A stretch of DNA of 64,000 nt from Solirubrobacteraceae bacterium (GTDB taxonomy: Bacteria > Actinomycetota > Thermoleophilia > Solirubrobacterales > Solirubrobacteraceae), in the NCBI GenBank assembly GCA_035540675.1, contig DATLGB010000223.1:4502-68501 (forward strand), in the 5' to 3' direction. The notes beneath the pieces are model-generated. The model did not search any database. It saw only the letters and a list, made by a program, of their open reading frames with translations, and had not been told where the DNA came from. Both the position numbers and the translations under genes were made by a program. Of the stretch, positions 31,550-46,834 are shown piece by piece (positions within the stretch are counted from its first letter, which is position 1; each line of letters opens with the position of its first letter).

Positions 31550-32679
31550 GCCGGCTCCATCGCCGCGTCGCGGCCGGCGCGGCGCTGGAAGCGGCCGAAG
31601 TTGTAGTACGCGGCGCAGGCGCCCTCGCTCGACACCATGCAGGTTCCGATCGGCCGGTCCGGGGTGCAGGCCGTGCCGAACACCTTGCACTCCCACGGCT
31701 TGATCACGCCCTTGAGCACCTCGCCGCACTGGCACGCCTTCGGGTCGGCCACCCGCACGCCGGGGACCGCGAAGCGCACCTCCGCATCCCAGTCGGCGAA
31801 GTCGTCGCGCAGCTTCAGCGCGCTCTGGGAGATGAAGCCCAAGCCACGCCACTCGAACGTCGTCCGCAGCTCCATCGTCTGCGCGATGGCCTGCAGCGCG
31901 AGCGGGTTGCCCTCCTCGCGCACCACGCGCGTGTACTGGTTCTCGACCTCGCTGCGACCCTCGGCGAGCTGCTTGAGCACCTGGTAGACGCCCTGCAGGA
32001 TGTCCAGCGGCTCGAACCCGGCCACGACGACGGGGCGCCCGTGGTCGCGCGCGATCCAGCGGTACGGGCGGGTGCCGATGACCGTCGACACGTGCCCCGG
32101 CCCGAGGAACCCGTCGAGGCGGAGGTCCGGCGAGTCGAGGATCGCTCGGATCGCCGGGATGATCGTCACGTGGTTGGCGAACACGCTGAAGTTGCGGATG
32201 CCCTCCGCGCGGGCGCGCAGCAGCGTCAGGGCCGTCGAGGGCGCCGTGGTCTCGAACCCGATCGCGAAGAACACGACCTCGCGGTCAGGGTTCTCGCGCG
32301 CGACCTTCAGCGCGTCCAGCGGCGAGTAGACCATCCGCACGTCGGCGCCGCGCGCCTTGGCGTCGAGCAGCGAGCCGCGGCTCGCGGGCACCCGCATCAT
32401 GTCGCCGAACGTGGTGAAGATCACCTCGGGGCGCTCGGCGATGGCGACGGCGTCGTCCTGCCGGCCCATCGGGATCACGCAGACGGGGCAGCCGGGGCCA
32501 TGGACCAGCTCGACGTTGGGCGGCAGCAGGTCCTCGATGCCGTGCTTGTAGATCGTGTGCGTGTGGCCGCCGCACACCTCCATCACCTTGTAGCCGCGGC
32601 CGGGATCCACCAGCGCCGCGATCTGCGCCGCCAGGCGCCGGGCGACGTCGCCGTCGCGGTACTCGTCGACGAACCTCAT
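31546..32679 (-). CDS. hypD: Hydrogenase maturation protein HypD
   Basis: MRFVDEYRD, MEVCGGHTH, GPGCPVCV, FxPGHVS-type motif GPGHVSTVIG, C-terminal Cys cluster. Confidence 0.95.
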   Translation of the reverse strand: MRFVDEYRDGDVARRLAAQIAALVDPGRGYKVMEVCGGHTHTIYKHGIEDLLPPNVELVHGPGCPVCVIPMGRQDDAVAIAERPEVIFTTFGDMMRVPASRGSLLDAKARGADVRMVYSPLDALKVARENPDREVVFFAIGFETTAPSTALTLLRARAEGIRNFSVFANHVTIIPAIRAILDSPDLRLDGFLGPGHVSTVIGTRPYRWIARDHGRPVVVAGFEPLDILQGVYQVLKQLAEGRSEVENQYTRVVREEGNPLALQAIAQTMELRTTFEWRGLGFISQSALKLRDDFADWDAEVRFAVPGVRVADPKACQCGEVLKGVIKPWECKVFGTACTPDRPIGTCMVSSEGACAAYYNFGRFQRRAGRDAAMEPA

Positions 32680-34010
32680 GGCCTCCCGATCCGGTCGAGC
32701 AGCAGGTGCGAGATCGTGGCGTGCGCCTCCTGCAGGCGCGGGACGTAGTCGCCGGGGACGCCGATGTGGTGGTCAAGCCAGCCGGCGCCGGCCAGACGGC
32801 CCCCGTCGTAGCCCGTGACGGCGACGGTCAGCATCCCGCGGCGGCGGGCCTCCTCGAGCCCGGCAAGGACGTTCGGCGACGACCCGCTCGTGGAGAACGC
32901 GATCGCCACGTCGCGCGCGCGGCCGAGCGGGATCAGCTGCCGGGCCCAGACGTTCTCGAAGCCGACGTCGTTGGCCACCGCGGTGACCGTCGGCGCGTCG
33001 TCGACGAGCGCGACCGCCGGCCAGCCCGCCGCCTGCGCGTCGAAGGCGAGGTCCTGGGCGTCGGTGGCCGAGCCGCCGTTGCCGAACGCGAGCAGGCGGC
33101 CGCCGGCGTCGAGGCGCGCGCGCACGGCCGCGGCGCACGCCGCGATCGCGTCGGCGTCGATCGTCCGCCGCAGCTCGATGGCGTCGCGCCCCTTGCGCAG
33201 TGTCGACGCGCGCACGTCGGCCAGGACGGCCTCGAGGTCGCGCTCGTCACCTTCGAGGAACGGATACAGGAAGCCCGTCGCCTCCGCCGGCGCGGCCGCG
33301 CGCTCGAGGCGCTCCAGCGCGACGCCGGCGTGGCAGAGCAACCGGTCGCCGGGTGCGACGGGCCCGACGAGGTCCACCGCGACCGTCTCGCGCGCGCCGC
33401 CGTGCTCGACGACCGCCGCCGTCCCCTCCACCGCGACGACCTCGACCTCCACCGCCACGTCGCCGCAGGTCAGGCACGCGTCGTCGAGCAGCCCCGGGTG
33501 CTCGAAGAAGACGTGCACGAGCTCCCACAGCACGTGGTACGTCGTCTCCTGCACCTCCTGGACGATCTCGGGCGCGGCAGCGGGCACCACGAACGCGTGG
33601 TCGGCGGCGAGCCGCTCCGCGCCGGCACCGAGCGCGATCGTCAGCATGCCGCGCCGTCGCGCTTCCTCCAGGAACGCGTCCAGCCGGCCGGGCTCGTGCG
33701 CCATCCCGATCGCGATGTCCTGCGGTCCGCCGAACGCCAGCGCCCGCTCCGGGCCGCCGGCGGGCGCGAGCGCCGGCAGCGCCCGCTTGCCGACGATCAC
33801 GGGGTGCATGAACTCGACCGCCACGTGGGCGGCGTCCGTGACGGCGGCGCCCGCGCCGTGCGCGATCAGCACGCCGCCGCGCGCGAAGGCGCGGGCGAGG
33901 TCGTGGCAGGCGCGCGCCAGCCGGTCCTGCTCGCGCTCGAGGAACGCCTCGAGCACCCGCTCGCGCTCGGCGATCGCGGTGGCGCTGGGACTGGTGGCGG
34001 AGGGCGTCAT
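32676..34010 (-). CDS. Fusion protein: degenerate SIS domain, HypC/HupF-like OB domain, then GmhA-like SIS domain
   Basis: ATG 34010 (ATGA with the hypC stop); its stop overlaps the hypD start (ATGA). The N-terminal SIS lacks S/T motifs (HGAGAAVTDAAHVAVEF). Middle CLTCGDVAVEVEVVAV...GDRLLCHAGVALERL. C-terminal AFGNGGSATDAQDLAFD and AFSTSGSSPNVLAGLEEARRRGMLTVAVTG. Confidence 0.7.
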   Translation of the reverse strand: MTPSATSPSATAIAERERVLEAFLEREQDRLARACHDLARAFARGGVLIAHGAGAAVTDAAHVAVEFMHPVIVGKRALPALAPAGGPERALAFGGPQDIAIGMAHEPGRLDAFLEEARRRGMLTIALGAGAERLAADHAFVVPAAAPEIVQEVQETTYHVLWELVHVFFEHPGLLDDACLTCGDVAVEVEVVAVEGTAAVVEHGGARETVAVDLVGPVAPGDRLLCHAGVALERLERAAAPAEATGFLYPFLEGDERDLEAVLADVRASTLRKGRDAIELRRTIDADAIAACAAAVRARLDAGGRLLAFGNGGSATDAQDLAFDAQAAGWPAVALVDDAPTVTAVANDVGFENVWARQLIPLGRARDVAIAFSTSGSSPNVLAGLEEARRRGMLTVAVTGYDGGRLAGAGWLDHHIGVPGDYVPRLQEAHATISHLLLDRIGRP

Positions 34011-34285
34011 TCGATCGAGGACGACCGCAGGTCGTCGAGCTCCTGCTCGAAGGCCTCGCCGAGCTCGACGAGGAACGCGCGCGTGGCCTCCGCCTCGGCC
34101 TCGTCGATCTTCGACATCGCGAAGCCGACGTGGATGAGCACCCAGTCGCCGACGTCGACGGCGTCGGGGCCGCCGCTGAGCAGGCCGACGTTGATCGCAC
34201 GCCGCACCCCCGAGACCTCCGCCTTGGCGATGTGGTGCTCGGGGTCGACCCACTCTACGATCTGGCCGGGAATTCCTAGGCACAT
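34007..34285 (-). CDS. hypC: Hydrogenase maturation chaperone HypC
   Basis: MCLGIPGQIVEW...GDWVLIHVGFAMSKIDEAEA. C-terminal part of ORF 34007..35698. Confidence 0.9.
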   Translation of the reverse strand: MCLGIPGQIVEWVDPEHHIAKAEVSGVRRAINVGLLSGGPDAVDVGDWVLIHVGFAMSKIDEAEAEATRAFLVELGEAFEQELDDLRSSSIE

Positions 34286-36462
34286 GACGCACGCATCCTC
34301 GCGGCCGCGACCGCAGCTTGTCCATAGGCGATCCCGCCGTCGTTCGGAGGCAGACGCCGGTGGGTCAGGACGCGGAACCCCGCCGCCTCGAGCCGCCGGC
34401 GCAGCGACCGGGCCAGCCGCCGGTTCTGCAGGCACCCCCCGCTGAGCGCGACGGTGTCGCCCGGAGTCGCCGCGGCGGCGCAGGCGGCGGCGAAGGCCGC
34501 GGCGAGGCCCTCGTGCACCGCGGCGGCGATCGCCGCCGCCGGGCGCCCGCCCCGCAGATCGTCGTGCGCGGCCCGCACGAGGTCGCTGCCGCGGATCACG
34601 CCGCCGGCGACCCGGCAGGGATAGGCGCGCGCCTCGGCGTCGCCAGCGAGCTGCTCGAGCTCGATCGCGGCCTGCCCCTCGTAGCTGATCACCTCGCGCA
34701 CGCCGAGCAGCGCCGCGACCGCGTCGAGCAGCCGCCCGGCGCCCGACGACGGGGGCGCGTTGACCGCCAGCGACTGGCGAACGAGCCTCCAGCGCTCCCA
34801 CGGCACCGGGCGCCCCGCCCGCTCGAGGTGCGCCGCGGCCGCGCGCCACGGCTCGCGGATGGCGGCCTCGCCTCCGGGCAGCGGCACCGGCTCGAGGTGC
34901 GCGACGCGCTCGAAGTCCGCCAGGTCGCACCGCAGCAGCTCGCCGCCCCAGAGCGTGCCGTCGGTCCCGTAGCCCGTCCCGTCGAGCACGATCGCCAGCG
35001 CGGGCGCCGTCTCGCCGTGCTCGGCCAGGCAGGCGGCGGCGTGCGCGTGGTGGTGCTGCACGCCGACGAGCTCGGCCTCCTGCTCCAGCGCCCAGCGCGT
35101 CGAGCGGTACTCGGGGTGCAGGTCGTGCGCGACGACCGCCGGCCGAATGCCGAGCATCTCCAGGTACAGGCGCAGGTCGTCGCCGAAGGCGAGCACCGCC
35201 GCCTCCGAGGAAAGGTCGCCGAGGTGCCCCGACGGGAACGCGCGCGCCCCGACCGCGACGCAGAACGCGCTCTTGAGGTCGGCTCCGGCGGCCACCAGCG
35301 GCTCCGGCGCCGCCAGCGGCAACGACAGCGGCGCCGGCGCCAGCCCGCGCGAGCGCCGCAGCGGATGCGCCGCCCGCACCACCGAGTCCTCGCAGCGCCG
35401 CTGGATTGGGCGGTCGTGGCCGAGGAAGGCGTCCGCGATGTCGCGCAGCCGGTCGTGCGCCTCGTCGTCGCCGACCGCGATCGGCTCGTCGCCGCGGTTG
35501 CCGCTGGTCATCACGAGCGGGCCGCCGAAGTCGTGCGCCAGCAGGTGGTGCAGCGGCGTGTAGGGGAGCATCACCCCGAGCTCCCGGGCGCCGGGCGCGA
35601 CCGACGGCGCGACGGGCGCGGCGGCCAGGCGCTCGAGCAGCACGATCGGCCGTGATGGCGCTTGCAACAGCGCCCGCTCGTCCGGCGATACCCGGCACAG
35701 CGCGTCCGGGTCGCCCGTCATCAGCGCGAACGGCTTGGCGTCGCGCGCCTTGCGCGCGCGCAGCCGCGCGACCGCGAGCTCATCGGCGGCGTCGCAGGCG
35801 AGATGCCAGCCGCCGAGGCCCTTCACGGCGAGGATGCCGCCGGCGCGCAGCACCGCGACCGCCTCCTCGAGCGGCATCGACAGGCGCGGCCCGCAGGCGG
35901 GACAGGCGATCGCCTCGGCGTGGAAGCGGCGGTCGGCCGGATCCTCGTACTCCGCCCGGCAGTCGCCGCAGAGGGGAAAGCCGGCCAGGGTCGTCCGCTC
36001 GCGGTCGTAGGGCAGCGCCCGCACGATCGTGAAGCGCGGCCCGCAGTTGGTGCAGGTCAGGAACGGGTAGCGGTGGCGCCGGTCGGCCGGGTCGAACAGC
36101 TCCCGCAGGCAGTCGGCGCACGTCGACAGGTCCGGCCCGATCGCCGGCGCCCCGGCGCCCCCGGCGCTCGTCGCGACGGCGAACCGGCGCTCTCCGCTCG
36201 GCGCCACGGACGTCTGCACGACGCCGTCGAGGGCGGCCGCGGCGGGCGCCTCGGCCACGAGCGCGGTGGCGAACGCATCCAGCGCCGCCGGCGACCCCTC
36301 GACCTCGACCTCGACGCCGGCGGCGGTGTTGCGGACATGGCCGCCGAGGCCGTGCCGGACGGCCAGGCCGTGCACGAAGGGCCGGAACCCCACGCCCTGC
36401 ACGATGCCCGTGATCTCGAGGCGGCGGCGCGCGGCCGGGACTGCGTCGGAGGCGACCGCCAC
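34276..36462 (-). CDS. hypF: Carbamoyltransferase HypF
   Basis: Acylphosphatase-like GIVQGVGFRPFV. Zn fingers CADCLRE..CTNCGPRFT and CGDCRAEY..CPACGPR. YrdC-like and Kae1-like C-terminal domains. Confidence 0.95.
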   Translation of the reverse strand: MAVASDAVPAARRRLEITGIVQGVGFRPFVHGLAVRHGLGGHVRNTAAGVEVEVEGSPAALDAFATALVAEAPAAAALDGVVQTSVAPSGERRFAVATSAGGAGAPAIGPDLSTCADCLRELFDPADRRHRYPFLTCTNCGPRFTIVRALPYDRERTTLAGFPLCGDCRAEYEDPADRRFHAEAIACPACGPRLSMPLEEAVAVLRAGGILAVKGLGGWHLACDAADELAVARLRARKARDAKPFALMTGDPDALCRVSPDERALLQAPSRPIVLLERLAAAPVAPSVAPGARELGVMLPYTPLHHLLAHDFGGPLVMTSGNRGDEPIAVGDDEAHDRLRDIADAFLGHDRPIQRRCEDSVVRAAHPLRRSRGLAPAPLSLPLAAPEPLVAAGADLKSAFCVAVGARAFPSGHLGDLSSEAAVLAFGDDLRLYLEMLGIRPAVVAHDLHPEYRSTRWALEQEAELVGVQHHHAHAAACLAEHGETAPALAIVLDGTGYGTDGTLWGGELLRCDLADFERVAHLEPVPLPGGEAAIREPWRAAAAHLERAGRPVPWERWRLVRQSLAVNAPPSSGAGRLLDAVAALLGVREVISYEGQAAIELEQLAGDAEARAYPCRVAGGVIRGSDLVRAAHDDLRGGRPAAAIAAAVHEGLAAAFAAACAAAATPGDTVALSGGCLQNRRLARSLRRRLEAAGFRVLTHRRLPPNDGGIAYGQAAVAAARMRASCA

Positions 36463-36468
36463 CCGTAC

Positions 36469-36822
36469 CTACGGCGTCGCCGGCCGCGGCAGGTCGGCGC
36501 GCGAGTCGATGTCGGCGGGCGAGGCGGCGGCCGTGCCGGCCTCCGTCGGGCCGCCCGAGGTCGTCTGCTCGGCGGGTGGCGCCGGCTCGCCCACGACCTC
36601 CTGCAGCGCGGTGGCCACCTGGGTGAGCGCCGCGTTGACGTCGCCGAGCGCCTGGCCGATCGGCGCCGTCTGCGACTCGATCGCGCGCACGCCGAACGTC
36701 ACGAGGCCGAGGGTCTTGGAGATGTTGCGCAGCGTCCGGGCGATCGCGATCAGGTAGCCCGCGAGCACGACGACGAGCAGCAGGACCTCGACGAGCGTGA
36801 GGACGATCAGCAGGGTGTTCAC
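36469..36822 (-). CDS. Small single-pass membrane protein, paralog 4 of 4 (117 aa)
   Basis: GTG 36822 (GTGA with the upstream stop). VNTLLIVLTLVEVLLLVVVLAGYLIAIARTLRNISK..., Pro/Ala-rich tail. Ends 7 nt before the hypF start. Confidence 0.6.
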   Translation of the reverse strand: MNTLLIVLTLVEVLLLVVVLAGYLIAIARTLRNISKTLGLVTFGVRAIESQTAPIGQALGDVNAALTQVATALQEVVGEPAPPAEQTTSGGPTEAGTAAASPADIDSRADLPRPATP

Positions 36823-37091
36823 GATTGGCCCCTCCCGGCTTGGCGATGGCGCTCGACTTCCTCGGCGAGCTCGGTTCCACGGGCGACGGTCGCCCCCAGC
36901 AGGTACGACGTCTGCGTGTTCTGGGCGACGAGCTTGCCGGTGTCCCACAGCACGGCCACGCCCTCGTCGATCCGCTTGACCGTGCGGCGCAGCGCCTCGA
37001 GGAGGGCCCACACCACCAGGGCCACCACGAGACCCACCGCGAGCGTGATCCACCACGCGGTCTGGTTCGACGTCATCGCGATCACGGTCAT
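36819..37091 (-). CDS. Small single-pass membrane protein, paralog 3 of 4 (90 aa)
   Basis: Track ORF. ATGA overlap. AWWITLAVGLVVALVVWALLEALRRTVKRIDEG... Confidence 0.6.
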   Translation of the reverse strand: MTVIAMTSNQTAWWITLAVGLVVALVVWALLEALRRTVKRIDEGVAVLWDTGKLVAQNTQTSYLLGATVARGTELAEEVERHRQAGRGQS

Positions 37092-37360
37092 ACGAGCCCC
37101 AGCTTCTTGAGGTAGCCGACGGCGAGGCCCGGAACGGCGCCGCCGAGGCGGCGGGTCGTGGCGAGCTGCTCGACGCCGTCGAGGTTGGTGGCGATGCCCA
37201 CGCCGGCCTGCAGGATGTCCTTCGCGTAGGAGTCGATCTCGCGCGCGGGCGCCATGATCCGCTGGAAGAGCGCGATCACGACGGCGAGCACCACGACGCC
37301 GAGCACGAGCCCGACGATCGCGAGCACGGCGCCGGCGGTCGACACGGCCAGGACGCTCAT
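37088..37360 (-). CDS. Small single-pass membrane protein, paralog 2 of 4 (90 aa)
   Basis: ATG 37360 (ATGA overlap). MSVLAVSTAGAVLAIVGLVLGVVVLAVVIALFQRIMAPAREID... Confidence 0.6.
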   Translation of the reverse strand: MSVLAVSTAGAVLAIVGLVLGVVVLAVVIALFQRIMAPAREIDSYAKDILQAGVGIATNLDGVEQLATTRRLGGAVPGLAVGYLKKLGLV

Positions 37361-37608
37361 CCGAACAGCTTCTCCCGCGCGGCGGCGAGGCTGCGCGTTA
37401 TGCGGTCGACGGTGTGGTTGGTCGTCCGGACCTCCCACAGCGGGTCCGTGTTCGCCGCCGCGCCCGCCAGGGCGCGCGTGATGTCCCCCGCCTGGCGCAC
37501 GATGCGCCGGCCCTCGCCGATGATCACCAGCAGCAGCGTCGCCGCGATCAGCACGACCACGAGCCCGACGCCCCAGCCGACGTACCAGCCGTAGGAGAGC
37601 GCGGTCAC
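37357..37608 (-). CDS. Small single-pass membrane protein, paralog 1 of 4 (83 aa)
   Basis: GTG 37608 (GTGA overlap with the DUF1059 stop). VTALSYGWYVGWGVGLVVVLIAATLLLVIIGEGRRIVRQAGDI... Confidence 0.55.
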   Translation of the reverse strand: MTALSYGWYVGWGVGLVVVLIAATLLLVIIGEGRRIVRQAGDITRALAGAAANTDPLWEVRTTNHTVDRITRSLAAAREKLFG

Positions 37609-37790
37609 TTCGACGGGAGGTCGCGGATCGCGGAGCGCGCGTAGCGGGCCAGCGTCGACGACTGCGAGAGGTCGACGCCGTGGACCTCCTTGGCGTGCTC
37701 GACCGCCTTCGCGAGGACCTCCTCCTCGGTCTCGCCCCGCACCTCGGCCTTGCACAGGACGCCGGCGTCCGCGCACTTGAAGCTCTTCAC
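37605..37790 (-). CDS. DUF1059-type small metal-binding protein (61 aa)
   Basis: GTG 37790 inside ORF 37605..37841. (M)KSFKCADAGVLCKAEVRGETEEEVLAKAVEHAKEVHG. Confidence 0.7.
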   Translation of the reverse strand: MKSFKCADAGVLCKAEVRGETEEEVLAKAVEHAKEVHGVDLSQSSTLARYARSAIRDLPSK

Positions 37791-37806
37791 GACGGGACCT
37801 CCACCG

Positions 37807-37870
37807 TTGACCTCTCCGCTCCCAGGCGGTAGATGTACCATACATACAGTGCCCGGTCCACCCGGACCGG
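37807..37870 (+). promoter_or_regulatory. Candidate sigma70-like promoter, overlapping palindrome and 5'-UTR hairpin in the divergent hydrogenase/hyp intergenic region
   Basis: TTGACC (37807-12), 17-nt spacer, TAGATG (37830-35). Palindrome ATGTA-cca-TACAT (37833-45) in the only AT-rich patch. Hairpin ccggtcc-accc-ggaccgg (37853-70). SD GGGAGGGAG at 37876-84. Confidence 0.3.
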
Positions 37871-37891
37871 CGTGTGGGAGGGAGAGCGACG

Positions 37892-39283
37892 GTGGCGACG
37901 CGAGCGAGGACGTCCGAGAAGACTCCGGCCGAGCGGCTGCTCGACGCCCTCGGCCCGGTCGAGGGGTTCAACCCCGACCATGGCGACTTCGGGTCACCGG
38001 CGCGGATGACGATGGAGGACTACCTCGCGCCCCACGCCGTCGCCGACGAGTCGACGCGCCTCGGCCCGCTCGAGAAGGTGCACCTCTTCTGGTTCGCCGG
38101 GATGAGCTGCGACGGCTGCAGCGTCGCGGTCACCGGCGCGCAGGCGCCGACCCTCGAGGGGCTGCTGATGGGCGCCCACCCGGGCCTGCCGCGCGTCGTG
38201 CTGCACCACCCGGTGGTCAACCTCGAGGCCGGCCCGGCCTACGTCCGCGCGGCCGAGCAGGCGCTCGCGGGAACGCTCGACGCGCCGTACGTGATCGTGC
38301 TCGAGGGTTCGATCAGCGACGAGACGATCCCGTACGCGTTCGGCGGCTACTGGGCGGGCCAGGGCGAGGAGCCCTGGGGGCCCGACGGCGAGCAGCGGAC
38401 CGTCACGGCCGACGAGTGGATCGCACGCATGGCCGACGGCGCCGCGGCGATGATCGCCATCGGCACGTGCGCCACCTGGGGCGGCATCCCGTCGGCGGCC
38501 GGCAACCCGACGGGGGCCATGAGCCTGATGGACTTCCTCGGCCGCGACTACCGCAGCACCTTCGGGGTGCCGGTCATCAACGTCCCGGGCTGCCCGCCGA
38601 TCGGCGACAACTTCACGGAGGCCGTCGCCGCGGTCGTGTACTTCCTGCAGGGCTTCGGGCCGCTGCCGGAGTTCGACGAGCTCGGACGGCCGGCCTGGCA
38701 GTTCGGCGAGACGGTGCACCGCCACTGCACGCGCGGCGCGTACTACGAGGAGGGCAACTTCGCGAAGGAGTACGGCGACAAGGAGTGCCTCGTCGAGCTC
38801 GGCTGCTGGGGCCCGGTCGTCAACTGCAACATCACCTCGCGCGGCGCCATCAACCACCACGGCGGGTGCATGAACGCCGGCGGCCCCTGCATCGGCTGCA
38901 CGATGCCCGGCTTCCCCGACAAGTTCACGCCGTTCTACAAGGCGCCGCCGGGCTCGAAGGTCTCCAGCACGATGTCGCGGATGCTCGGCTCCTTCATCCG
39001 CCCGCTGCGCGAGTACTCGAACGAGCACCTCAACCGGGAGGTGCGCTGGGACCTCGAGGGCCACGTCCCCAGCGGGTGGGCGCGGCGCCAGGAGGAGCCG
39101 GGGCCCATCCGGGCCGTCGGGCACCGCTTCTACGACCGGATGCGCCAGTCGACCGACGGCGCACGGCGCTCCGGCGAGACGTGGGGCAAGCGCGACGAGT
39201 TCACGTTGATGAAGGACCCGTCGCTGGATCGCCGCCTCCCGGGCGGCGAGGAGGAGACGCTCACCATCGACGAGGGGCGCTAG
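37892..39283 (+). CDS. [NiFe]-hydrogenase small subunit, no Tat signal, long hydrophilic C-terminal extension
   Basis: GTG 37892, 7 nt after GGGAGGGAG (track start 37874 also possible). FWFAGMSCDGCS, GTCATWGGIP, PGCPPIGDN, HRHC..C, CLVELGCWGPVVNC, GGCMNAGGPCIGCTMPGFPD. No RRxF motif. Confidence 0.9.
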   Translation: MATRARTSEKTPAERLLDALGPVEGFNPDHGDFGSPARMTMEDYLAPHAVADESTRLGPLEKVHLFWFAGMSCDGCSVAVTGAQAPTLEGLLMGAHPGLPRVVLHHPVVNLEAGPAYVRAAEQALAGTLDAPYVIVLEGSISDETIPYAFGGYWAGQGEEPWGPDGEQRTVTADEWIARMADGAAAMIAIGTCATWGGIPSAAGNPTGAMSLMDFLGRDYRSTFGVPVINVPGCPPIGDNFTEAVAAVVYFLQGFGPLPEFDELGRPAWQFGETVHRHCTRGAYYEEGNFAKEYGDKECLVELGCWGPVVNCNITSRGAINHHGGCMNAGGPCIGCTMPGFPDKFTPFYKAPPGSKVSSTMSRMLGSFIRPLREYSNEHLNREVRWDLEGHVPSGWARRQEEPGPIRAVGHRFYDRMRQSTDGARRSGETWGKRDEFTLMKDPSLDRRLPGGEEETLTIDEGR

Positions 39284-39287
39284 CGCC

Positions 39288-41189
39288 GTGTGCTTCAAGA
39301 ACCTCCCCATCGAGTTCGACGAGGGCGGCGTCGCCACCCTGCGCGGCGGCATCCCCAATCCCTACGCCGTCGAGGTGTCAAAGCCCCACGTGGGGATGAC
39401 CAACGACGAGCAGCGCGAGCAGATCGAGCGCCTCGTCGCGTCCAACGGGCACATCCGCGAGATCAACATGGACCCGGTCACGCGCGTGGCCGGCGCCATC
39501 GCGCTCAACATCGCCGCCAACCTCGACGACGGCAAGTACCTCGACGCGCGCTCGCAGGCGACGCTGTTCCGCGGCTACGAGGTGATCCTCATGGGCCGCG
39601 ACCCGCGCGACGCGATCTTCGTGTCCTCGCGCGCGTGCGGCGTCTGCGGCGGCGTCCACGCTCACTGCTCGGCCTACGCGATCGAGATGGCGATGGGCGT
39701 CGCGCCGCCGCCGATGGGGACCGTCGTGCGCAACCTCGGCGAGGCCGCCGAGATGGGCTACGACAACCCGCTGCACCTCTACCTGCTGGCCGGCCCCGAC
39801 TACTCCGAGATCGTCGTCCGCGCCACCAACCCGGAGATCTGGGAGAAGGCGCAGACGTGGAAGTGCCCCGGCGCCGAGCACCACGGCTTCAAGACCATGG
39901 GCGAGCTGATGACGGCGCTGAACCCGCTGACGGGCCGCCTGTACCGCGAAGGACTGGACTTCACCCGGCTGGCGCGCGAGATGTTCGTGCTGCTGCACGG
40001 CAAGTACCCGCACCCGCAGGCGATCGTCCCCGGCGGCGTCACCTCGACGATCTCGCTGCAGACGCTCAACGAGTACCAGGCCAAGCTCGGGCGCATCTTC
40101 GACTACGCCCAGCGCCTGGTCGCGGTGTGGGACGACATCCCGGAGTTCTTCTACGAATGCGACGAGCGCTACAAGCTCGTCGGCTCGCGGCCGGTCAACC
40201 TCGTCGACACCGGCTTCTGGGACGACCCCTACGCCTACGACGCCACGTACGAGAACTGCAACGAGTGGGGCGCGCGCCGCTGGTCGACGCCGGGCGCGAT
40301 CATCGACGGCGAGCTGGTCACGACGCGCCTGACCGACCTCAACATGGGCATCGAGGAGTTCGTCGAGCACTCCTACTACGAGCAGTGGGCGGGCGACCGC
40401 TACGAGACCGACCCGCTCGGCAACCCGCTCTCGCCCTACCACGCGTGGAACAAGCAGACGCTGCCCAAGCCGAGCGGGCGCAGCTGGAAGGACAAGTACA
40501 CCTGGGCCTGCACGCCGCGCTGGGACCGCCACGTCGTCGAGGCCGGCGCCTACAACCGCCTGTTCATGACGGCGCTGGCGCAGCAGCAGCCCGAGAACGA
40601 CTTCATCGAGGCCACCGGCACCGGCATCCGCATGTCGATCCCCAAGGGCTACACGAAGGCCGCCGAGGCCGAGTGGCGGATCCCGGACTCCTGGAACGCG
40701 TTCGAGCGCAACCGGGGGCGCGCCTACCACTACCTGTTCTCGCAGCTCGTCGGCCTGTCGAGCCTGCTCGAGGCCTACAAGCTCTTCCGCGCGGGTGAGA
40801 CGCGGGTCGCCGCGCTGAACTCCAAGGAGCTCGAGAAGGCGATGCCGCGCGACGAGCGGCGCGGCGTCGGCTTCTGGGGCGCCGGCCGGGGCTGGCTGAC
40901 GCACCACATCGTCATGGACAACGGCAAGATCACCAACTACCAGATCAACACCCCGTCGACCATCAACGCCTCGCCGCGCGACCCGTGGGGACAGCCCGGG
41001 CCGTACGAGCAGGCGGTCCAGAACACGCCGATCCTCGAGAAGTTCTCGAGTCCCGACGAGTTCACGTCGATCGACATGCTGCGGGCGCTGCGGTCGTTCG
41101 ACCCGTGCATGCCGTGCACGACCCACACGGCCACCGGCAACGGCACCGTGATCGGCCAGGTGAACACCTGCTCGTGCGGCGCCGACTGA
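39288..41189 (+). CDS. [NiFe]-hydrogenase large subunit (subgroup unassigned)
   Basis: L1 RACGVCGGVHAHC, L2 RSFDPCMPCTTH followed by a 20-aa cleavable-type tail. GC3-rich from the GTG at 39288. Atypical DPVTRVAGA and GAGRGWLTHH. Confidence 0.9.
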   Translation: MCFKNLPIEFDEGGVATLRGGIPNPYAVEVSKPHVGMTNDEQREQIERLVASNGHIREINMDPVTRVAGAIALNIAANLDDGKYLDARSQATLFRGYEVILMGRDPRDAIFVSSRACGVCGGVHAHCSAYAIEMAMGVAPPPMGTVVRNLGEAAEMGYDNPLHLYLLAGPDYSEIVVRATNPEIWEKAQTWKCPGAEHHGFKTMGELMTALNPLTGRLYREGLDFTRLAREMFVLLHGKYPHPQAIVPGGVTSTISLQTLNEYQAKLGRIFDYAQRLVAVWDDIPEFFYECDERYKLVGSRPVNLVDTGFWDDPYAYDATYENCNEWGARRWSTPGAIIDGELVTTRLTDLNMGIEEFVEHSYYEQWAGDRYETDPLGNPLSPYHAWNKQTLPKPSGRSWKDKYTWACTPRWDRHVVEAGAYNRLFMTALAQQQPENDFIEATGTGIRMSIPKGYTKAAEAEWRIPDSWNAFERNRGRAYHYLFSQLVGLSSLLEAYKLFRAGETRVAALNSKELEKAMPRDERRGVGFWGAGRGWLTHHIVMDNGKITNYQINTPSTINASPRDPWGQPGPYEQAVQNTPILEKFSSPDEFTSIDMLRALRSFDPCMPCTTHTATGNGTVIGQVNTCSCGAD

Positions 41190-41202: not shown

Positions 41203-41688
41203 GTGATCCTCGTCGCCGGGGTCGCCGAGCTCTACCAGGGCGACCTCGACCTCGGGCGCGTCGCCGTCGCGCGGCTGCAGGAGGCCGGCCTCGGCGACGA
41301 CGTGCGGGTGGAGGAGCTCTCCTACGGCGCCGTGGCCGTGACGCAGCGGCTGCAGGAGCTGCGGCCGGACGCACTCGTCCTGATCGCGGCGCACCCGCGC
41401 GGCCGCGAGCCCGGCAGCGTCGAGCGGCGCGACGTCGGCCCCAGCGACCTCCCCGCGGCCGAGCTGCAGACGGCCATCGGCGACGCGATCACCGGCTACG
41501 TGACGGTCGACCTGCTCGTCGAGGTGGCGACGGCGCTGGAGGCGCTGCCGCCGCGAGTGGTCGCCATCGAGGTCGAGCCGGCGCGGGTCGAGCCGGTCGA
41601 CGAGCTGTCCGAGCCGGCGCGGGCGGGGCTCGAGCGGGCGCTCGAGCTCGTGCGCACGGAGGTCGAGCGCCTGCGGGCGCGCAGCTAG
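41203..41688 (+). CDS. Degenerate HyaD/HupD-family hydrogenase maturation protease-like protein
   Basis: Fold-level resemblance (ILVAGVAELYQGDLDLGRVAV...ALVLIAAHP...). By my alignment the GNxxxxD(D/E)GxG motif and the Glu/Asp/His metal ligands are not conserved. Confidence 0.55.
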   Translation: MILVAGVAELYQGDLDLGRVAVARLQEAGLGDDVRVEELSYGAVAVTQRLQELRPDALVLIAAHPRGREPGSVERRDVGPSDLPAAELQTAIGDAITGYVTVDLLVEVATALEALPPRVVAIEVEPARVEPVDELSEPARAGLERALELVRTEVERLRARS

Positions 41689-42419
41689 AGCGCCGGCACG
41701 ATCTCGTCCGGCGGCTCGAGCCGGGCGAGGTGCTGCGGGCGGACGGCGATCCGCCGCCCGTCGGGCTGCTCGATCACGAGCGCACCGTCGCGCAGCACGC
41801 TCGTCGCGGTGCCGGTGATCTGGACTCCATCCGGCCAGGTGGGGATGAGGTGCGCCCGGACCGGACGGCCGAGCGTCGCGCAACGCTCGCGATAGCGCGC
41901 GAGGGCGGCGTCGTCGGGCTCCTGGAGGCGCTCCACGGCCGCCGCCAGGCGGGCGATCAGCTCGCCGCGCGGGGAGGGCGCGTCGAGCACGAGCAGGTTG
42001 ACGACCGCCCACTCCACGCCGGTGGGACCGAGCCCCGCGTGCCCGGCCACGTCGGCCAGCCGGCGCTCGGTCGCCCACACCTGGTCGGGCCACTCGATCG
42101 CCGCAGCGGGATCGACCGCGTCGACCACGGCGGCCGCGGCGGCGACGAACAGCCAGCCCTCGTCGTCGGGCGCGAGCTGCGGCCGCAGCAGCAGCGAGAA
42201 GCACAGGTCGCGGCCCGGGCGAGGCGTCCACGGCAGGCCGCCGCGGCCGCGCGCGGCGGCCTGGTAGTCGGCGGTGACGACGGCGCCCGCAGGCCCGCCG
42301 GCGCGCGCCCAGGCGACGGCGTCGGCGTCGGTCGACATGACGGCGGGATAGGTGCGGACGGGGCGATCGCCGAGCGCGCGCGCGAGCGCGTCGGGGGTGA
42401 GGTCGTCGCTCAGCGCCAC
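41685..42419 (-). CDS. Biotin/lipoate protein ligase (BirA catalytic domain)-like protein
   Basis: Track ORF. ADYQAAARGRGGLPWTPRPGRDLCFSLLLRP resembles the GRGRxGRxWxSPxGxxL motif, but degenerate. Confidence 0.5.
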   Translation of the reverse strand: MALSDDLTPDALARALGDRPVRTYPAVMSTDADAVAWARAGGPAGAVVTADYQAAARGRGGLPWTPRPGRDLCFSLLLRPQLAPDDEGWLFVAAAAAVVDAVDPAAAIEWPDQVWATERRLADVAGHAGLGPTGVEWAVVNLLVLDAPSPRGELIARLAAAVERLQEPDDAALARYRERCATLGRPVRAHLIPTWPDGVQITGTATSVLRDGALVIEQPDGRRIAVRPQHLARLEPPDEIVPAL

Positions 42420-43645
42420 GGCCCGGGATCACCGTGGTCGAGCGCCGCCTGCGCGAAGACGTCCTGCAGCCGCATCCACTGCGGGATGTGGAAGCGCGCC
42501 ATGGCGCGGCGGACGGCCTCGCGGAACGTCTCGGCCGTGTCAGCGTCGGTCGCCGCCAGCGCCTGCATCGCGCTCGCCACGAGCCGGTCGAGCGCGTCCG
42601 ACGGCAACTCGAGCAGGGCGCCGAGCCAGATCTGCGCGACGTCGGTGGGGTCGCGACGGGCGCGCGCGTGGACCGCTACCCACTCCGCGGCATCGGAGCG
42701 GCGGGCGTCGTCGCCGGCGTCGGCGCTGCGCAGCAGCTCCTCCCGCGCGAGCTGCTCGGCCGCGAGGTCGCCGGCGGCATCGAGGGCGGTGCCGAGGTCC
42801 TCGGCCTGCGGGACCCCCAGGCGCCGGATTAGCTCAGCCGCCTGCGCGCGCACCGGCTCGGCGGCGCCGGGCGCCGCGAGCGCCTGCCGCGCCGCCAGGC
42901 GCGCCCGTGGCGCGTCGCCCGCGCGCTCGAGCGCCAGCGCCAGGTTGGCCTTGGCCATCGCGAAGGCGTCGGGGCGCAGCGCGCGCGGGCTCGAGGCGAC
43001 GGCGACCGCGAACGCCTCGGTCGCGGCCTCGGGACGTCCCCCGGCCAGTCGCGCCAGCCCCAGCGCGTTGGCGGCGGCGGCGCGCCCGGGGGCGTCCCCC
43101 GCGCGCTCGCTCAGCTCCACCGCAGCCTCGAGTGCCGCCTCGGCACCGTCGGCGTCGCCGGCGTCGAGCCGCGCGGCGCCGAGCTCGCGCAGTGCGGCGG
43201 CGGCCTGCGCCGGCACGCGCCGCTCGTCGAGGCGCTCCACCGCCCGCTCGAGCACGCGGGCGGCGGCCTCGGCGCGTCCTCCCTCGCGCATCACCAGCCC
43301 GAGGTTGTACAGCGCGGCGCCCTCGTCGAGGGGCAGGCCGGCGGCGGCCAGCCCGGCGGCGGCGTGCTCGAGCGCCCGCTCGGCGACGTCGAGGCGGCCG
43401 GCGGCACGCAGCGTGGCGCCGAGCCCGTTGAGCGCCTTCGCCTGCTCCGGACGCGCGCCGCGCAGGCCGAACAGGCCGGCCGCGGTCGTGAACGCCTCCT
43501 CGGCGGCGTCGAGCGCGCCCTGCGCGAGGAGCACGCCTCCGAGGTGGAACTGGACGGTGGCGTGCTGGAGCGGGTGGCGGTGCGCGTCGTAGCGCTCCAG
43601 CCGCCCGCGCAGCTCGTCGAGGACGTCGTCGGGAGCCGCCGCCAC
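42410..43645 (-). CDS. TPR-repeat protein
   Basis: Track ORF. At least 6 Ala/Leu/Gly-rich TPR-like repeats (ALNGLGATLRAAGRLDVAERALEHA...). Unrelated C-terminal helical domain. Confidence 0.6.
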   Translation of the reverse strand: MAAAPDDVLDELRGRLERYDAHRHPLQHATVQFHLGGVLLAQGALDAAEEAFTTAAGLFGLRGARPEQAKALNGLGATLRAAGRLDVAERALEHAAAGLAAAGLPLDEGAALYNLGLVMREGGRAEAAARVLERAVERLDERRVPAQAAAALRELGAARLDAGDADGAEAALEAAVELSERAGDAPGRAAAANALGLARLAGGRPEAATEAFAVAVASSPRALRPDAFAMAKANLALALERAGDAPRARLAARQALAAPGAAEPVRAQAAELIRRLGVPQAEDLGTALDAAGDLAAEQLAREELLRSADAGDDARRSDAAEWVAVHARARRDPTDVAQIWLGALLELPSDALDRLVASAMQALAATDADTAETFREAVRRAMARFHIPQWMRLQDVFAQAALDHGDPGPWR

Positions 43646-44266
43646 CTAGGCGTCCGCGCCGCCGCGCGGCAGGCGCGTCTCGATCTGCAGCAGCCCGGCA
43701 TCGGCCGGCCCCGCGGCCGGGGGCGGGAAGGCGTCGATCTGCAGCAGCGTCGGTCCGGGCGGCGGATGCGGCAGGGCGTCGTCCTCCTCGACCTCCATGG
43801 CCACGAAGCCGGGCATGCCCTCGCGCAGCGCCTCCTCCACGCCCCGGCGCAGCGTGATCGTCGACGCGGTGCAGCCCGAGCAGGCGCCCGAGAGCCGCAC
43901 GCGCACGACGCCGCCGGCGGCCTCGACGACGCTGACGTCTCCGCCGTGCGAGTGCAGGTAGGGGCGAACGCCGTCCAGCGCCGCCTCGGCCGCCGCGCGC
44001 TCGTCGACGCCGACGGCATACGCGTTCAGCAGCCAGCCGACGGCCGGGTCGGCGCCGCGCAGCCGCTCGACCTCGTCCGGATGCAGCGCGGCGGCGAGGC
44101 GGTGGAGCGCGTGTCGGTGGACGGCGTCGATGCCGTCGAGCAGCGAGAAGACCCGCGCGCGCACGGCCTCGTCGAGAGCGTCGACCGCCCGCAGGTCGTC
44201 CTCCATGTCGTCGAGCAGGTCGTCGAAGTCCGTCACCGGCGAAGTACCTTTCGTCACTTGGACCAT
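43646..44266 (-). CDS. NifU C-terminal (Nfu)-domain protein
   Basis: ATG 44266 in the frame of ORF 43646..45682. VRPYLHSHGGDVSVVEAAGGVVRVRLSGACSGCTASTITLR. Confidence 0.75.
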   Translation of the reverse strand: MVQVTKGTSPVTDFDDLLDDMEDDLRAVDALDEAVRARVFSLLDGIDAVHRHALHRLAAALHPDEVERLRGADPAVGWLLNAYAVGVDERAAAEAALDGVRPYLHSHGGDVSVVEAAGGVVRVRLSGACSGCTASTITLRRGVEEALREGMPGFVAMEVEEDDALPHPPPGPTLLQIDAFPPPAAGPADAGLLQIETRLPRGGADA

Positions 44267-44731
44267 ACCGGCCGCATCATCGTCGCGTGCGTGGGCAACG
44301 TCCTGCGGCTCGACGACGGTTTCGGGTACGCGGTCGCCGAGCGGCTCGGCGACGTGCCGCCGGGCGTCGAGGTGCTGGAGAGCGGCATCGGCGGCATGAT
44401 GGTCGTGCAGGAGCTGCTGGTCGGGGCGGACGGGCTGATCATCGTGGACGCCGTGGACCGCGGCGCGGCGCCCGGCACGCTGTTCGTGATCGAGCCGGAG
44501 GTGGAGCCGCCGTCGCAGGTCGGCGACATCCACCTGTCCAACCCGGACAAGGTGCTGTCGCTGGCCGGCGGCCTCGGGTGCCTGCCTGAGCGGCTCCTGC
44601 TGGTCGGCTGCCAGCCGCGCGACGTCGAGGGCATGGGTCGCCGCCTGTCGCCGGAGGTCGAGCGAGCCGTGGACCTGGCGGTCGACCGCATCCACGCGAT
44701 CCTGCGCGAGTGGACGGCCGCCCCGGCGTGA
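44258..44731 (+). CDS. Hydrogenase maturation endopeptidase (HyaD/HupD/HybD family), canonical
   Basis: IIVACVGNVLRLDDGFGYAV, LIIVDAV, GDIHLSNP. The start is uncertain: TTG 44258 is the only in-frame start upstream of the first strand, and it overlaps the divergent NifU-like start by 9 nt. Confidence 0.75.
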   Translation: MDHTGRIIVACVGNVLRLDDGFGYAVAERLGDVPPGVEVLESGIGGMMVVQELLVGADGLIIVDAVDRGAAPGTLFVIEPEVEPPSQVGDIHLSNPDKVLSLAGGLGCLPERLLLVGCQPRDVEGMGRRLSPEVERAVDLAVDRIHAILREWTAAPA

Positions 44732-45336
44732 GCGGCGACCGCGAGCGCTGGAACGAGCGGCACGCCGCCGCGCTGGCCGCCGGGCGGGCGAACGGGCCGC
44801 CGAGCGCGTGGCTGCTCGAGCACGCCGGTGTCGTGGCGGCGCAGCCGCGCGGCCGCGCGCTCGACGTCGCGTGCGGCCTCGGCCGCAACGCGCTGCACCT
44901 CGCCGCGATGGGCTTTCGGGTTCTCGCCCTGGACGTCTCCGACGTCGCGGTCGAGCACGTGGCGCGGCGCGCGCGCGAGCGGGGTCTGGCGGTGGAGGCG
45001 CGACGGGTCGACCTCGGTCGCGAAGCGCTGCCGCCGGGACCCTTCGAGGTCGTCGTGGTCGCGTCCTTTTTGGACCGCCGCCTGCTCGGGCCGCTGGCGC
45101 GGGCGCTCGCCCCGGGCGGGCTGCTGCTCTACGACACGTTCCTGGCCGATGCGACGGCGACCTGCGGCCCGCGCGATCCCGCGCACGTCCTGCGGCCGGG
45201 GGAGCTCTCCGCGGCCTTCGCCGGCCTCGAGCGGCTGGATCTGCGCGAAGGCGCCCCGGCGCCCGGCGAGCGCGCGCGGGCCCGGCTCCTCGCCCGCCGC
45301 CGCGACGGGTTGCCGGTGTGTGTTCCAGACACGTAG
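44728..45336 (+). CDS. Class I SAM-dependent methyltransferase (TehB/TPMT-like)
   Basis: GTGA-coupled to the protease. WNERH...ALDVACGLGRNALHLAAMGFRVLALDVS. Confidence 0.7.
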   Translation: MSGDRERWNERHAAALAAGRANGPPSAWLLEHAGVVAAQPRGRALDVACGLGRNALHLAAMGFRVLALDVSDVAVEHVARRARERGLAVEARRVDLGREALPPGPFEVVVVASFLDRRLLGPLARALAPGGLLLYDTFLADATATCGPRDPAHVLRPGELSAAFAGLERLDLREGAPAPGERARARLLARRRDGLPVCVPDT

Positions 45337-45346
45337 AATCGCGCCC

Positions 45347-46099
45347 ATGAAGCTCGTCGTGGCCGGCAAGGGCGGCTCGGGGAAGACGTCCATCTCGGGG
45401 ACGCTGGCGCGCCTGCTCGCCCGCTCGGGCCGGCGCGTGCTGGCGATCGACGCCGACTCCAATCCGAACCTGTCGCTGACGCTCGGCATCCCGGCCGACC
45501 GCTTCAACTCGGTGCCCACGCTGCCGCGCGACCTGCTGCAGCGCACGCCGGATGGCGCACGGCTGTCGAAGTCGCTCGACGAGATCCGGTCCTCGCACTC
45601 CCTCGACGGGCCCGACGGCGTCAGCCTGCTCGTCATGGCCCACCCGCAGCACGCGGGCACCGGGTGACTGTGCTCCATGCACGCTACGGTCCGTAGCGTC
45701 ATCGAGGTGTCAGGCGAGGGTCCCGCGGACGTGACGATCCTCGACACGGAAGCGTCGCCGGAGCACCTCTCGCGCGGGACGGCGATGCACGCCGACGCGA
45801 TGCTCGTGGTCGTCGAGCCCTACTTCAAGTCGCTCGAGACGGGCCGGCGGATGGCGGCGCTCGGCACCGACCTCGGGCTGCCGCGCGTCGCGCTCGTGGC
45901 CAACAAGATGCGCGACGAGCGCGACGAGGCCGCCGTGCGCGAGTTCGCCGAGCAGCACGGGCTCGAGGTGGCGGGGACCATCCCCTTCGACGAGGCGATG
46001 CCGGCCGCCGAGCGCGCCGGCGTCTCACCGCTCGACCACGATCCCGGCGCGCCGAGCGTCGCGGCGATCGGCGAGCTCGCCCGGAGCTTCGTGCGATGA
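45347..46099 (+). CDS. CooC/AcsF-like MinD-family Ni-insertion ATPase with in-frame TGA (codon 107) replacing the first Cys of the CxC metal site; probable selenoprotein (alternatively a pseudogene)
   Basis: Tail of track ORF 44828..45667 and ORF 45677..46099 share one frame. Joined: MKLVVAGKGGSGKTS (deviant Walker A)...LLVMAHPQHAGTG-U-LC-SMHATVRSV...ILDTEASPEHLSRGT...VVVEP. 250 aa, typical CooC length. U-x-C aligns with CooC Cys-x-Cys. Confidence 0.7.
45681..45699 (+). promoter_or_regulatory. Candidate bacterial SECIS hairpin (CooC-like gene)
   Basis: UGA-N13-ACGCUAC(G)[GUC](C)GUAGCGU. 7-8 perfect bp, apical GGUCC/GUC loop. Confidence 0.6.
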
Positions 46100-46461
46100 G
46101 CGACCTCGAGCGGCTGAAGATCCTCGACGAGGTCCTGCAGGCGATGTACTGGATGCACGCCGAGGGCATCTCGTCGGTACCGACCGCGGACGAGCTCTCG
46201 CGCTTCCTGGGCGTGCCGTCGGGGACGCTCGCGCCCCACCTGGAGGGCTTCGCCGACGACGGCCTGCTCGAGCGCGAGGCGGGCGGCTACCGCCTCAGCG
46301 CCGAGGGGGAGCAGCGCGGCAAGCGGACGTTCGCCGACGAGTTCGCGGGCCTGACCGGCGCCTCGCACGGCGAGTGCGACGAGAACTGCTGGTGCCACGA
46401 TTCGCCGGAGGCGGCGGCGAGCTGTCTGGAGGAGCGCAGCGGGCATGCCCACCAGCACTGA
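46096..46461 (+). CDS. Small DtxR-like winged-helix protein with Cys/His-rich C-terminal tail (metal sensor or metallochaperone candidate)
   Basis: ATGA-coupled to the CooC-like gene. LQAMYWMHAEGISSVPTADELSRFLGVPSGTLAPHLEGFADDGLLERE... then HGECDENCWCHDSPEAAASCLEERSGHAHQH. Confidence 0.55.
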   Translation: MSDLERLKILDEVLQAMYWMHAEGISSVPTADELSRFLGVPSGTLAPHLEGFADDGLLEREAGGYRLSAEGEQRGKRTFADEFAGLTGASHGECDENCWCHDSPEAAASCLEERSGHAHQH

Positions 46462-46834
46462 GCCGGCGGCGCCGCTGCTGCCGCGCAACTTCCTGCGCCC
46501 GTGCGTCCTGCTGTTGCTGCGCGAATCCCCCGCTCACGGTTACGACCTGCTCGAGCGGCTCGCGGCCTTCGGGTTCGCCAAGCAGGATCCGGGCGGCCTG
46601 TACCGCGCGCTGCGGGCGCTGGAGGACGAGGGCCTCGTGCGCTCCTCGTGGGAGGCGTCCGACCAGGGCCCGGACCGCCGCATCTACGAGATCACGCGCG
46701 CGGGCGCCGAGCACCTGCACGAGCACGCGCTCGCGCTGCAGTCGACCGCCGACGTGCTGCACGCGTTCCTTGGCCGCTACGAGGAGTTCGTCGCGCTGCC
46801 GGAGCGCCCCCGCGCGGCGCGGGCGCTGCGCTGA
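46445..46834 (+). CDS. PadR-family transcriptional regulator
   Basis: LLLLRESPAHGYDLLERL...GGLYRALRALEDEGLVRSSWE...RRIYEITRAG. Confidence 0.85.
   Translation: MPTSTEPAAPLLPRNFLRPCVLLLLRESPAHGYDLLERLAAFGFAKQDPGGLYRALRALEDEGLVRSSWEASDQGPDRRIYEITRAGAEHLHEHALALQSTADVLHAFLGRYEEFVALPERPRAARALR

Follow-up and report, generated by a model that had tools for sequence, protein, structure and literature searches.

Five short single-pass transmembrane (TM) proteins, HylTM1-5, have been described from group 1l [NiFe]-hydrogenase loci, where their genes lie between hylS and hylL, and it was proposed that they anchor the enzyme to the membrane and relay electrons (Ortiz et al., 2021; bioRxiv 10.1101/2020.08.06.239558). 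Their mutual identity has been reported at 12–30%, and in an AlphaFold model they appear as tube-like scaffolds adjoining the HylS extension (PMC13554262). The clusters that encode the [NiFe]-hydrogenase of group 1m (Hhm) have also been listed as containing a DUF1059 protein and small single-TM proteins; two of the latter, of 82–92 amino acids (aa), were described for these loci and were not connected to HylTM1-5, and bin 90, which was used to define the group, is a member of the Solirubrobacteraceae (Ray et al., 2022; PMC9561532). The array considered here comprises five small genes, designated A to E, found within a 64-kb stretch of DNA (the window, meaning the whole stretch that was analysed) from a Solirubrobacteraceae metagenome-assembled genome (MAG) with a G+C content of 74.5%. 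The kind of element, its proposed function and the type of cluster are already published; what is added is the presence of four TM proteins (compared with two) in group 1m-type loci and their one-to-one mapping to HylTM families, along with the loss of a cysteine tail, the variety of gene layouts and the existence of stand-alone arrays. The four TM proteins, B to E, are considered to form a cofactor-less membrane stalk or tether for a cytosolic group 1l/1m [NiFe]-hydrogenase with a probability of about 0.6.

All five genes were found on the minus strand at the coordinates given by an earlier reading made from the DNA alone (the sequence-only reading), chained by 4-nt overlaps of GTGA (A/B), ATGA (B/C), ATGA (C/D) and GTGA (D/E). 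Gene A (37605..37790), the first in the operon, encodes a soluble DUF1059 protein of 61 aa (Pfam PF06348, E = 1.7e-16). It is followed by gene B (37357..37608; 83 aa, TM helix at approximately residues 13–31), gene C (37088..37360; 90 aa, TM helix at approximately residues 9–31), gene D (36819..37091; 90 aa, TM helix at approximately residues 13–33) and gene E (36469..36822; 117 aa, TM helix at approximately residues 4–27). In B and C the TM helix leads into a predicted cytoplasmic segment, helical in B, in D into a cytoplasmic helix, and in E into a long cytoplasmic helix with a disordered, variable tail. The gap between the stop codon of E and the GTG start codon of hypF (36462) was measured at 6 nt, not the 7 nt claimed previously. 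Several of the genes had also been said to be missed or mis-started, which is true of a mechanical list of longest open reading frames (ORFs) but not of the public gene calls for the same contig, which give exactly 61, 83, 90, 90 and 117 aa.

DNA of high G+C content yields many long spurious ORFs, and A to E could in principle be chance ORFs of a 75% G+C genome. The G+C content at third codon positions (GC3) in their frames is 0.91–0.99 (0.98 for gene A), with values of 0.43–0.52 at second positions (GC2), and the ratio of non-synonymous to synonymous substitution rates (dN/dS), calculated against four orthologous loci, is 0.23–0.65 for the array genes, so that purifying selection is evident. 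There are in addition hundreds to thousands of homologues, and both order and overlaps are conserved. The spurious-ORF reading was rejected on codon-position G+C and dN/dS, and its probability is negligible. On the basis of GC3, dN/dS and a gene order that recurs in approximately 50 loci, A to E are real, conserved genes, which confirms the earlier observation.

In each of the proteins B to E a single 19-mer near the N-terminus is strongly hydrophobic (Kyte-Doolittle mean 2.4–3.3) and in A there is none, which bears out the description of four TM proteins with one architecture, an N-terminal TM helix and then a helical segment. Within the 12 residues flanking the TM helix, Lys and Arg average 2.0–2.7 on the C-terminal side versus 0.0–0.8 on the N-terminal side across all four families (2.5 versus 0.2 in the gene B family and 2.0 versus 0.0 in the gene C family). 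From this excess of positive charge after the helix, B to E should be oriented N-out/C-in, and their C-terminal segments should therefore be on the cytoplasmic side, where a hydrogenase lacking a twin-arginine translocation (Tat) signal would sit. AlphaFold2 models were made with family alignments for D and E, as single chains, and predict a single continuous helix at residues 2–88 of D (predicted local distance difference test score, pLDDT, 78) and at residues 2–77 of E (pLDDT 80), after which the variable tail of E is disordered.

A search of the PDB with the D and E family profiles found designed coiled coils only and no natural partner. The matches of the E profile were solely to designed coiled-coil bundles and barrels, a likeness which is a compositional signal and not homology. 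Searches of Pfam and NCBIfam with B, C and D gave sub-threshold matches to TM composition only and no family, and a PDB sequence search with the DUF1059 protein A gave no meaningful relative. Proteins B to E contain no Cys, and the sole invariant His among them is H82 of D, and on their own they are therefore unable to bind either haem or an iron-sulphur (FeS) cluster. Family alignments show W13, N58-T59 and H82 to be invariant in D and an intramembrane E12 to be conserved in E, while C6, C13, H32 and H37 of the gene A product (C-x6-C ... H-x4-H) are invariant in 41 orthologues.

Homology to the HylTM proteins was judged against the ORFs of group 1l-type loci in which the array is interposed between the subunit genes, and whose large subunits are 54–58% identical to that of the window. 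In more than 20 loci with the group 1l layout (including L074), the five interposed ORFs match the B, D, E, C and E profiles in that order with E < 1e-3, at 38–48 bits for B, 47–75 for D, 22–43 for C and 30–49 for E. Gene B thus corresponds to the first interposed ORF, D to the second, C to the fourth and E to the fifth or third; the hidden Markov model (HMM) of gene B, built from 46 orthologues, matches the first interposed ORF in L074 and in L132-L161. The second, D-like ORF alone carries a C-terminal H-x3-C-x2-C-P-x-C tail and, as the only array member with such a tail, it presumably must be the published tri-cysteine HylTM4. The window D is an orthologue of HylTM4 in which the cysteines are lost (its C-terminus reads ...ERHRQAGRGQS) and H82 is kept, this residue being invariant even where the tail has disappeared.

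By these profile matches four of the five HylTM families evidently have their homologues in B, C, D and E, which together represent what can be called a four-gene, Cys-free actinobacterial version of HylTM1-5. Both sets are short single-pass TM proteins of low mutual identity, both are tied genetically to a high-affinity hydrogenase that lacks a Tat signal and has a small subunit extended at its C-terminus, and the same function has been proposed for both. The window differs in having four genes and not five, with no further HMM match to a fifth HylTM-type member anywhere in its 64 kb, and in a D protein without the tri-Cys tail. Its array is not interposed between the subunit genes; it is divergent from the small-subunit gene and heads the hyp genes, and it is led by the gene for DUF1059. 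A tentative remark in the sequence-only reading, that runs of short TM ORFs had been noted in some recently defined aerobic uptake-hydrogenase loci, proved to be correct for both HylTM1-5 and the small TM proteins of group 1m.

The four TM proteins had also been called paralogous. Full-length profile-profile comparison supports this for C-D (probability 97.7%), B-D (93.0%) and B-C (92.6%), and less so for B-E (49.8%), while C-E and D-E gave nothing; most of the full-length similarity, however, is that of the TM helix. When TM columns were kept and soluble columns shuffled, the real alignments scored 12–16 units higher for B-C, B-E and C-D, and no excess was seen for C-E and D-E. Taken alone, the soluble segments score 8–17 against a background of 9.6±2 when columns are shuffled, and the pairs C-D and B-E stand out no more than marginally. 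As the soluble segments are barely above shuffles, the four are not called paralogues with confidence, and their common descent is plausible from these profiles without being demonstrated by them. The weak mutual similarity is consistent with the low identity published for HylTM1-5. The loosely conserved pattern reported for the helical segments exists at the family level, where R-R/T-x-V follows the TM helix and an N-T/Q-T motif lies approximately 25 residues further on, but outside the TM helix the profile-profile similarity is marginal.

Homologues of the array are numerous, with 304 found for E at E ≤ 0.01 and at least 2359 homologue clusters for the D-family profile. Four E homologues on long metagenome contigs lie in an overlapping four-gene array that is divergent from the subunit genes and followed by hypF or hypC. 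Searching GTDB species genomes with the alignment of E gave 80 loci, all from MAGs, belonging to Solirubrobacterales, Thermoleophilaceae, Gaiellales, Acidimicrobiales, Pseudonocardiaceae and one Binatia. The sequence-only reading had staked its case on conservation of the small ORFs in syntenic relatives, and the order A-B-C-D-E was found by tblastn in approximately 50 of the 80 loci, in Thermoleophilia and Acidimicrobiia, mostly with the same xTGA overlaps.

Because the sample obtained with the E alignment is biased by its own query, a second and less biased sample of 80 metagenome loci was fetched with the large subunit alone and scanned with profile HMMs of A to E built from syntenic orthologues. 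In 37 loci the sequence upstream of the large subunit was 3 kb or longer; 35 of these had three or more TM ORFs and 36 had at least one, which makes the linkage of array and hydrogenase strong. The array was found interposed between the structural genes, upstream of them on the same strand, divergent from them, or split 3+2. Among loci with window-type large subunits (70–89% identity) there was either a divergent four-gene array, a tandem duplicate (L092), or a split into B-D-E upstream and C-E-DUF1059 downstream. Duplicated arrays occur in two close relatives of the window (L091 and L092), the second of which has two tandem B-C-D-E arrays.

Given that the array stands next to the structural genes in such varied layouts, its linkage is to these genes, across several rearrangements, and is not specific to hyp. 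This bears on the suggestion, made in the sequence-only reading, that the small proteins are a maturation scaffold. In such a role they would assist the Hyp machinery in assembly, perhaps by keeping the apo-enzyme at the membrane while metal is inserted, and would not belong to the mature enzyme. An array co-oriented with hypF or hypC and nearly abutting it, as in the window and in many actinobacterial loci, would fit such a role. The hyp linkage is lineage-specific, however. The interposed layout puts the genes between hylS and hylL, split layouts adjoin structural genes or NifU and lie away from hyp, and hypF is elsewhere in some loci (L005 and L029). To our knowledge, no Hyp system (HypA-F) needs membrane proteins. 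The scaffold suggestion gains little support from these layouts, and we regard such a role as quite improbable.

Several observations weigh against a stalk dedicated to the hydrogenase. Complete stand-alone five-gene arrays, in the order B-D-E-C-E (e.g., L073:7788-9222), were found at 28 loci in MAGs of Pseudonocardiaceae and related organisms (among L058-L089). Within ±9 kb of these arrays no hydrogenase or hyp gene was found, and all-against-all clustering of flanking ORFs revealed no conserved neighbour. Two Thermoleophilia loci (L057 and L067) also carry arrays without a nearby hydrogenase, and the module is therefore not obligatorily linked to one. The window array is one member short of the published five, and the Cys motif found at the C-terminus of HylTM4 is missing from it. 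The literature searched held no experiments on any HylTM-type protein. Finally, E resembles the widespread DUF948/YoxC family (PF06103, COG4768), which has no hydrogenase specificity. As observations in their own right, extra array-family ORFs (a partial second array) occur in L079 and L080, and longer E-like proteins of 229–368 aa, with a TM helix and repeated helical segments, are encoded beside the five-gene array of L067 (L067:3-3557).

The likeness of E to DUF948/YoxC invites the explanation that B to E are membrane proteins of a general, DUF948-like kind, active in housekeeping or stress, and simply often carried near hydrogenase genes. As in DUF948, E has an N-terminal TM helix and then a helical segment, and it scores 18.5 bits with the DUF948 model, below the gathering threshold of 37.2; 21 of 27 E-family members match below threshold (best E = 1.6e-4), and the Joint Genome Institute (JGI) labels homologues of E as 'YoxC'. 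The stand-alone arrays in variable contexts, and the longer E-like proteins beside the array of L067, would suit this explanation as well. The DUF948 model does not match B, C or D, however, and these three belong to no family of Pfam or NCBIfam, while the array is present in 35 of 37 loci anchored on the large subunit and its linkage survives several independent rearrangements. A general role is consequently held to be improbable.

A further possibility, raised in the sequence-only reading as a quinone-interaction module, is that the helices do not merely tether the enzyme but serve in quinone reduction or electron relay, by forming a quinone site, by providing a hydrophobic conduit of the kind that HucM makes for Huc, or by carrying a redox cofactor. 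A published model (PMC13554262) puts the distal cluster near the TM domains, and the D orthologue of interposed loci has the tri-Cys tail described above. In 12 interposed group 1l-type loci the middle Cys of this tail is replaced by an in-frame TGA, C-P-G-[TGA]-P-x-C, which suggests a redox-active CxxU, where U is selenocysteine (Sec). The invariance of H82 in D despite the loss of Cys, the conserved intramembrane Glu of E, and the resemblance of the E profile to designed helical barrels also speak for a relay. Against it, B to E of the window have no Cys and a single invariant His (H82 of D), with no binding of haem b or FeS expected of them alone; the likeness to barrels is compositional, and there is no known quinone-site motif for comparison. 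A relay function therefore seems unlikely, although several features of the family would accommodate it.

The TGA-containing forms merit description of their own. They occur in L150:5761-6099 (TGA at 6061-6063) and in L136, L139, L143-L145, L147-L149, L153, L158 and L164, and the frame is conserved, with synonymous changes, up to a second stop beside the start of the next gene. This HylTM4-type form is likely a candidate CxxU selenoprotein that has been truncated by gene callers. An Rfam scan for a selenocysteine insertion sequence (SECIS) at the TGA gave no match, RNAalifold found no helix shared by nine of the TGA sequences (two sequence groups have hairpins in different registers), and folding energies were not better than those of shuffles. 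The hairpin evidence is thus weak, and the call draws chiefly on the alternation of Cys and TGA at this codon and on conservation of the frame past the TGA.

In the stalk reading, which we prefer, B to E would be subunits of a small hetero-oligomeric membrane stalk of high-affinity, cytosol-facing hydrogenases. Each protein would insert N-out through one TM helix, with a helix of approximately 50–60 residues running on into the cytoplasm. We infer that these cytoplasmic helices pack as a coiled-coil bundle or tube, that the bundle binds the C-terminal extension of the small subunit, and that the catalytic dimer is thereby held at the membrane, where electrons from the distal FeS cluster could reach quinone. 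Translational coupling through the 4-nt overlaps would lead to matched stoichiometry, and the DUF1059 protein A would be a soluble, Cys2His2-type partner which travels with Cys-free arrays.

Classical uptake hydrogenases, which are periplasmic and exported by Tat, are encoded with HyaC/HoxZ-type cytochrome b anchors, di-haem proteins of four helices that are the presumed link to the quinone pool. Proteins B to E differ in being single-helix proteins that lack haem ligands, and in accompanying an enzyme that faces the cytoplasm. The best mechanistic analogue of the proposed stalk is HucM, a helical accessory protein which forms a coiled-coil tube linking Huc to the membrane with access to menaquinone (Grinter et al., 2023; PMC10017518). 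Both would be stalks for a cytosolic, Tat-less, O2-insensitive hydrogenase, and the stalk would work like HucM without any relation in sequence; no match to the Huc chains (PDB 7UTD/7UUR) was seen at E ≤ 10 in the PDB profile searches, which were made with D and E only. HucM is also a single protein that forms a peripheral homotetramer, whereas B to E are TM-anchored.

The distribution of DUF1059 among the loci hints at a role for this protein. Of 110 loci whose D is Cys-less, 57 have a DUF1059 gene, as against 0 of 21 where D has a Cys or Sec tail. These counts, which are uncorrected for phylogeny, hint that the protein may replace the function of the HylTM4 tail. An extended version of this idea is that the Cys-free four-helix array and DUF1059 make up one unit, a HucM-like stalk or conduit to which DUF1059 supplies in trans the redox or metal site of the HylTM4 tail. 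The support for this from the counts is correlative only, and the idea is doubtful at present. If true, the module could be unlinked from the enzyme genes, the stand-alone arrays of Pseudonocardiaceae being a case in point, and might serve hydrogenases encoded elsewhere.

The structural genes of the window stand on the plus strand, divergent from the array. The [NiFe]-hydrogenase small subunit (37892..39283; 463 aa) and large subunit (39288..41189; 633 aa, PF00374) were identified with Pfam and are adjacent, with 4 nt between them. The best PDB match of the small subunit is the group 1h structure 5AA5_A, with an alignment covering residues 58-387 of 463, past the end of which there is a C-terminal extension of approximately 76 aa. 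The small subunit has SCDGCS (CDGC) where group 1h 5AA5 has GCDGDS (CDGD), and the Cys of CDGC may be a ligand of the proximal cluster, as would fit the four-Cys cluster of group 1l. HylS of group 1l has been described as having a proximal cluster motif of four Cys, where group 1h has an Asp, and as being extended at its C-terminus by approximately 100 aa (Ortiz, bioRxiv 10.1101/2020.08.06.239558, suppl. note 1). Inspection by eye found no twin-arginine motif in the N-terminus of the small subunit, in agreement with the earlier statement that it lacks a Tat signal.

Downstream of E, and also on the minus strand, are hypF (34276-36462), hypC (34007-34207; 66 aa), a gene for a 444-aa protein in which a HypC/HupF domain is fused to SIS domains (32676-34010), hypD (31546-32679) and hypE (30461-31549), with hypF, hypC, hypD and hypE assigned by Pfam. 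The pair of a separate HypC and a HypC/HupF-SIS fusion is kept in related loci. Directly downstream of hypE, a DnaB replicative helicase with a LAGLIDADG-domain intein is encoded at 27675-30353 (minus strand).

The remaining genes of the cluster lie at 41203..46834. On the plus strand this region encodes an unknown protein (161 aa), a HycI protease (157 aa), a methyltransferase (202 aa), a CooC-type ATPase (CbiA/CooC; 45347-46099) with an in-frame TGA, a 121-aa protein and a PadR regulator (46445-46834). On the minus strand it encodes a BirA-like protein (244 aa; a weak match, with BPL domains at E ~0.07), a TPR protein (411 aa; TPR_12, E = 4.9e-19) and a NifU-domain protein (43646-44236; 196 aa). 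The last of these can be aligned with the NifU half of 'HylE', the NifU-Rieske protein of related loci, and has no Rieske domain, so that the earlier statement that the cluster holds no HucE/HhyE-like partner was half right, being correct for the missing Rieske domain and incorrect for the NifU part.

In its gene content the cluster appears to match the description of group 1m. The small and large subunit genes are adjacent, and a HybD/HycI protease, a NifU-type FeS protein, a CooC-type ATPase, TPR, BirA-like (the weak match above) and DUF1059 proteins are all encoded. B, C and D, at 83, 90 and 90 aa, fall within the published size class of single-TM proteins, E (117 aa) being extra, and the cluster type occurs in Actinobacteriota including Solirubrobacteraceae. 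The difference is that the window and its relatives carry four small TM proteins and not two.

An AT-rich palindrome, ATGTA-N3-TACAT, stands out in this G+C-rich DNA at 37833..37845, within the 101 bp that separate gene A from the divergent gene of the small subunit. Similar palindromes (e.g., TGTGTATCGTACATATA) were seen by eye 50–70 nt upstream of the DUF1059 start in approximately 20–25 of the 43 listed syntenic loci, and the element is possibly an operator of the PadR regulator of the cluster. A consensus scan of 36300-38000 for sigma-70 promoters and terminators found none.

A second candidate for selenocysteine is the CooC-type ATPase for Ni insertion, which is publicly annotated as two ORFs (45347-45667 and 45677-46099; 106 and 140 aa) but is a single frame that contains a TGA, in phase, at 45665-45667. 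This TGA sits at the first Cys of a G-C-x-C motif, and across loci the aligned codon is TGA in 30 cases and TGC or TGT in 26. The TGA forms have a 5-bp helix 15 nt downstream (45683-45687 with 45693-45697), in which 97.3% of cells are paired and compensatory changes are found in three pairs; none of 500 shuffles reached this value, slid controls gave 12–45%, and in the Cys forms 42.7% of cells in the same columns are paired. The TGA is likely to specify selenocysteine with a bacterial SECIS and is a good candidate. No report of selenocysteine in CooC was found in the literature searched, and no tRNA-Sec was found in the window.

Among the cytosol-facing, high-affinity hydrogenases that use atmospheric H2, Huc is the only one with a solved electron route to the respiratory chain, which runs by way of the HucM stalk. 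In the soils of deserts and polar regions, groups 1l and 1m rank with the most abundant hydrogenases, and for these the membrane link is only a model. The window offers a compact example of such a link, with four coupled genes and no cofactor ligands. The candidate selenoproteins, CooC and HylTM4, are possibly of more immediate use to annotators. The orthology map of four versus five genes, the co-movement of the array with the structural genes and the stand-alone arrays leave the current picture unchanged and sharpen the choice of constructs.

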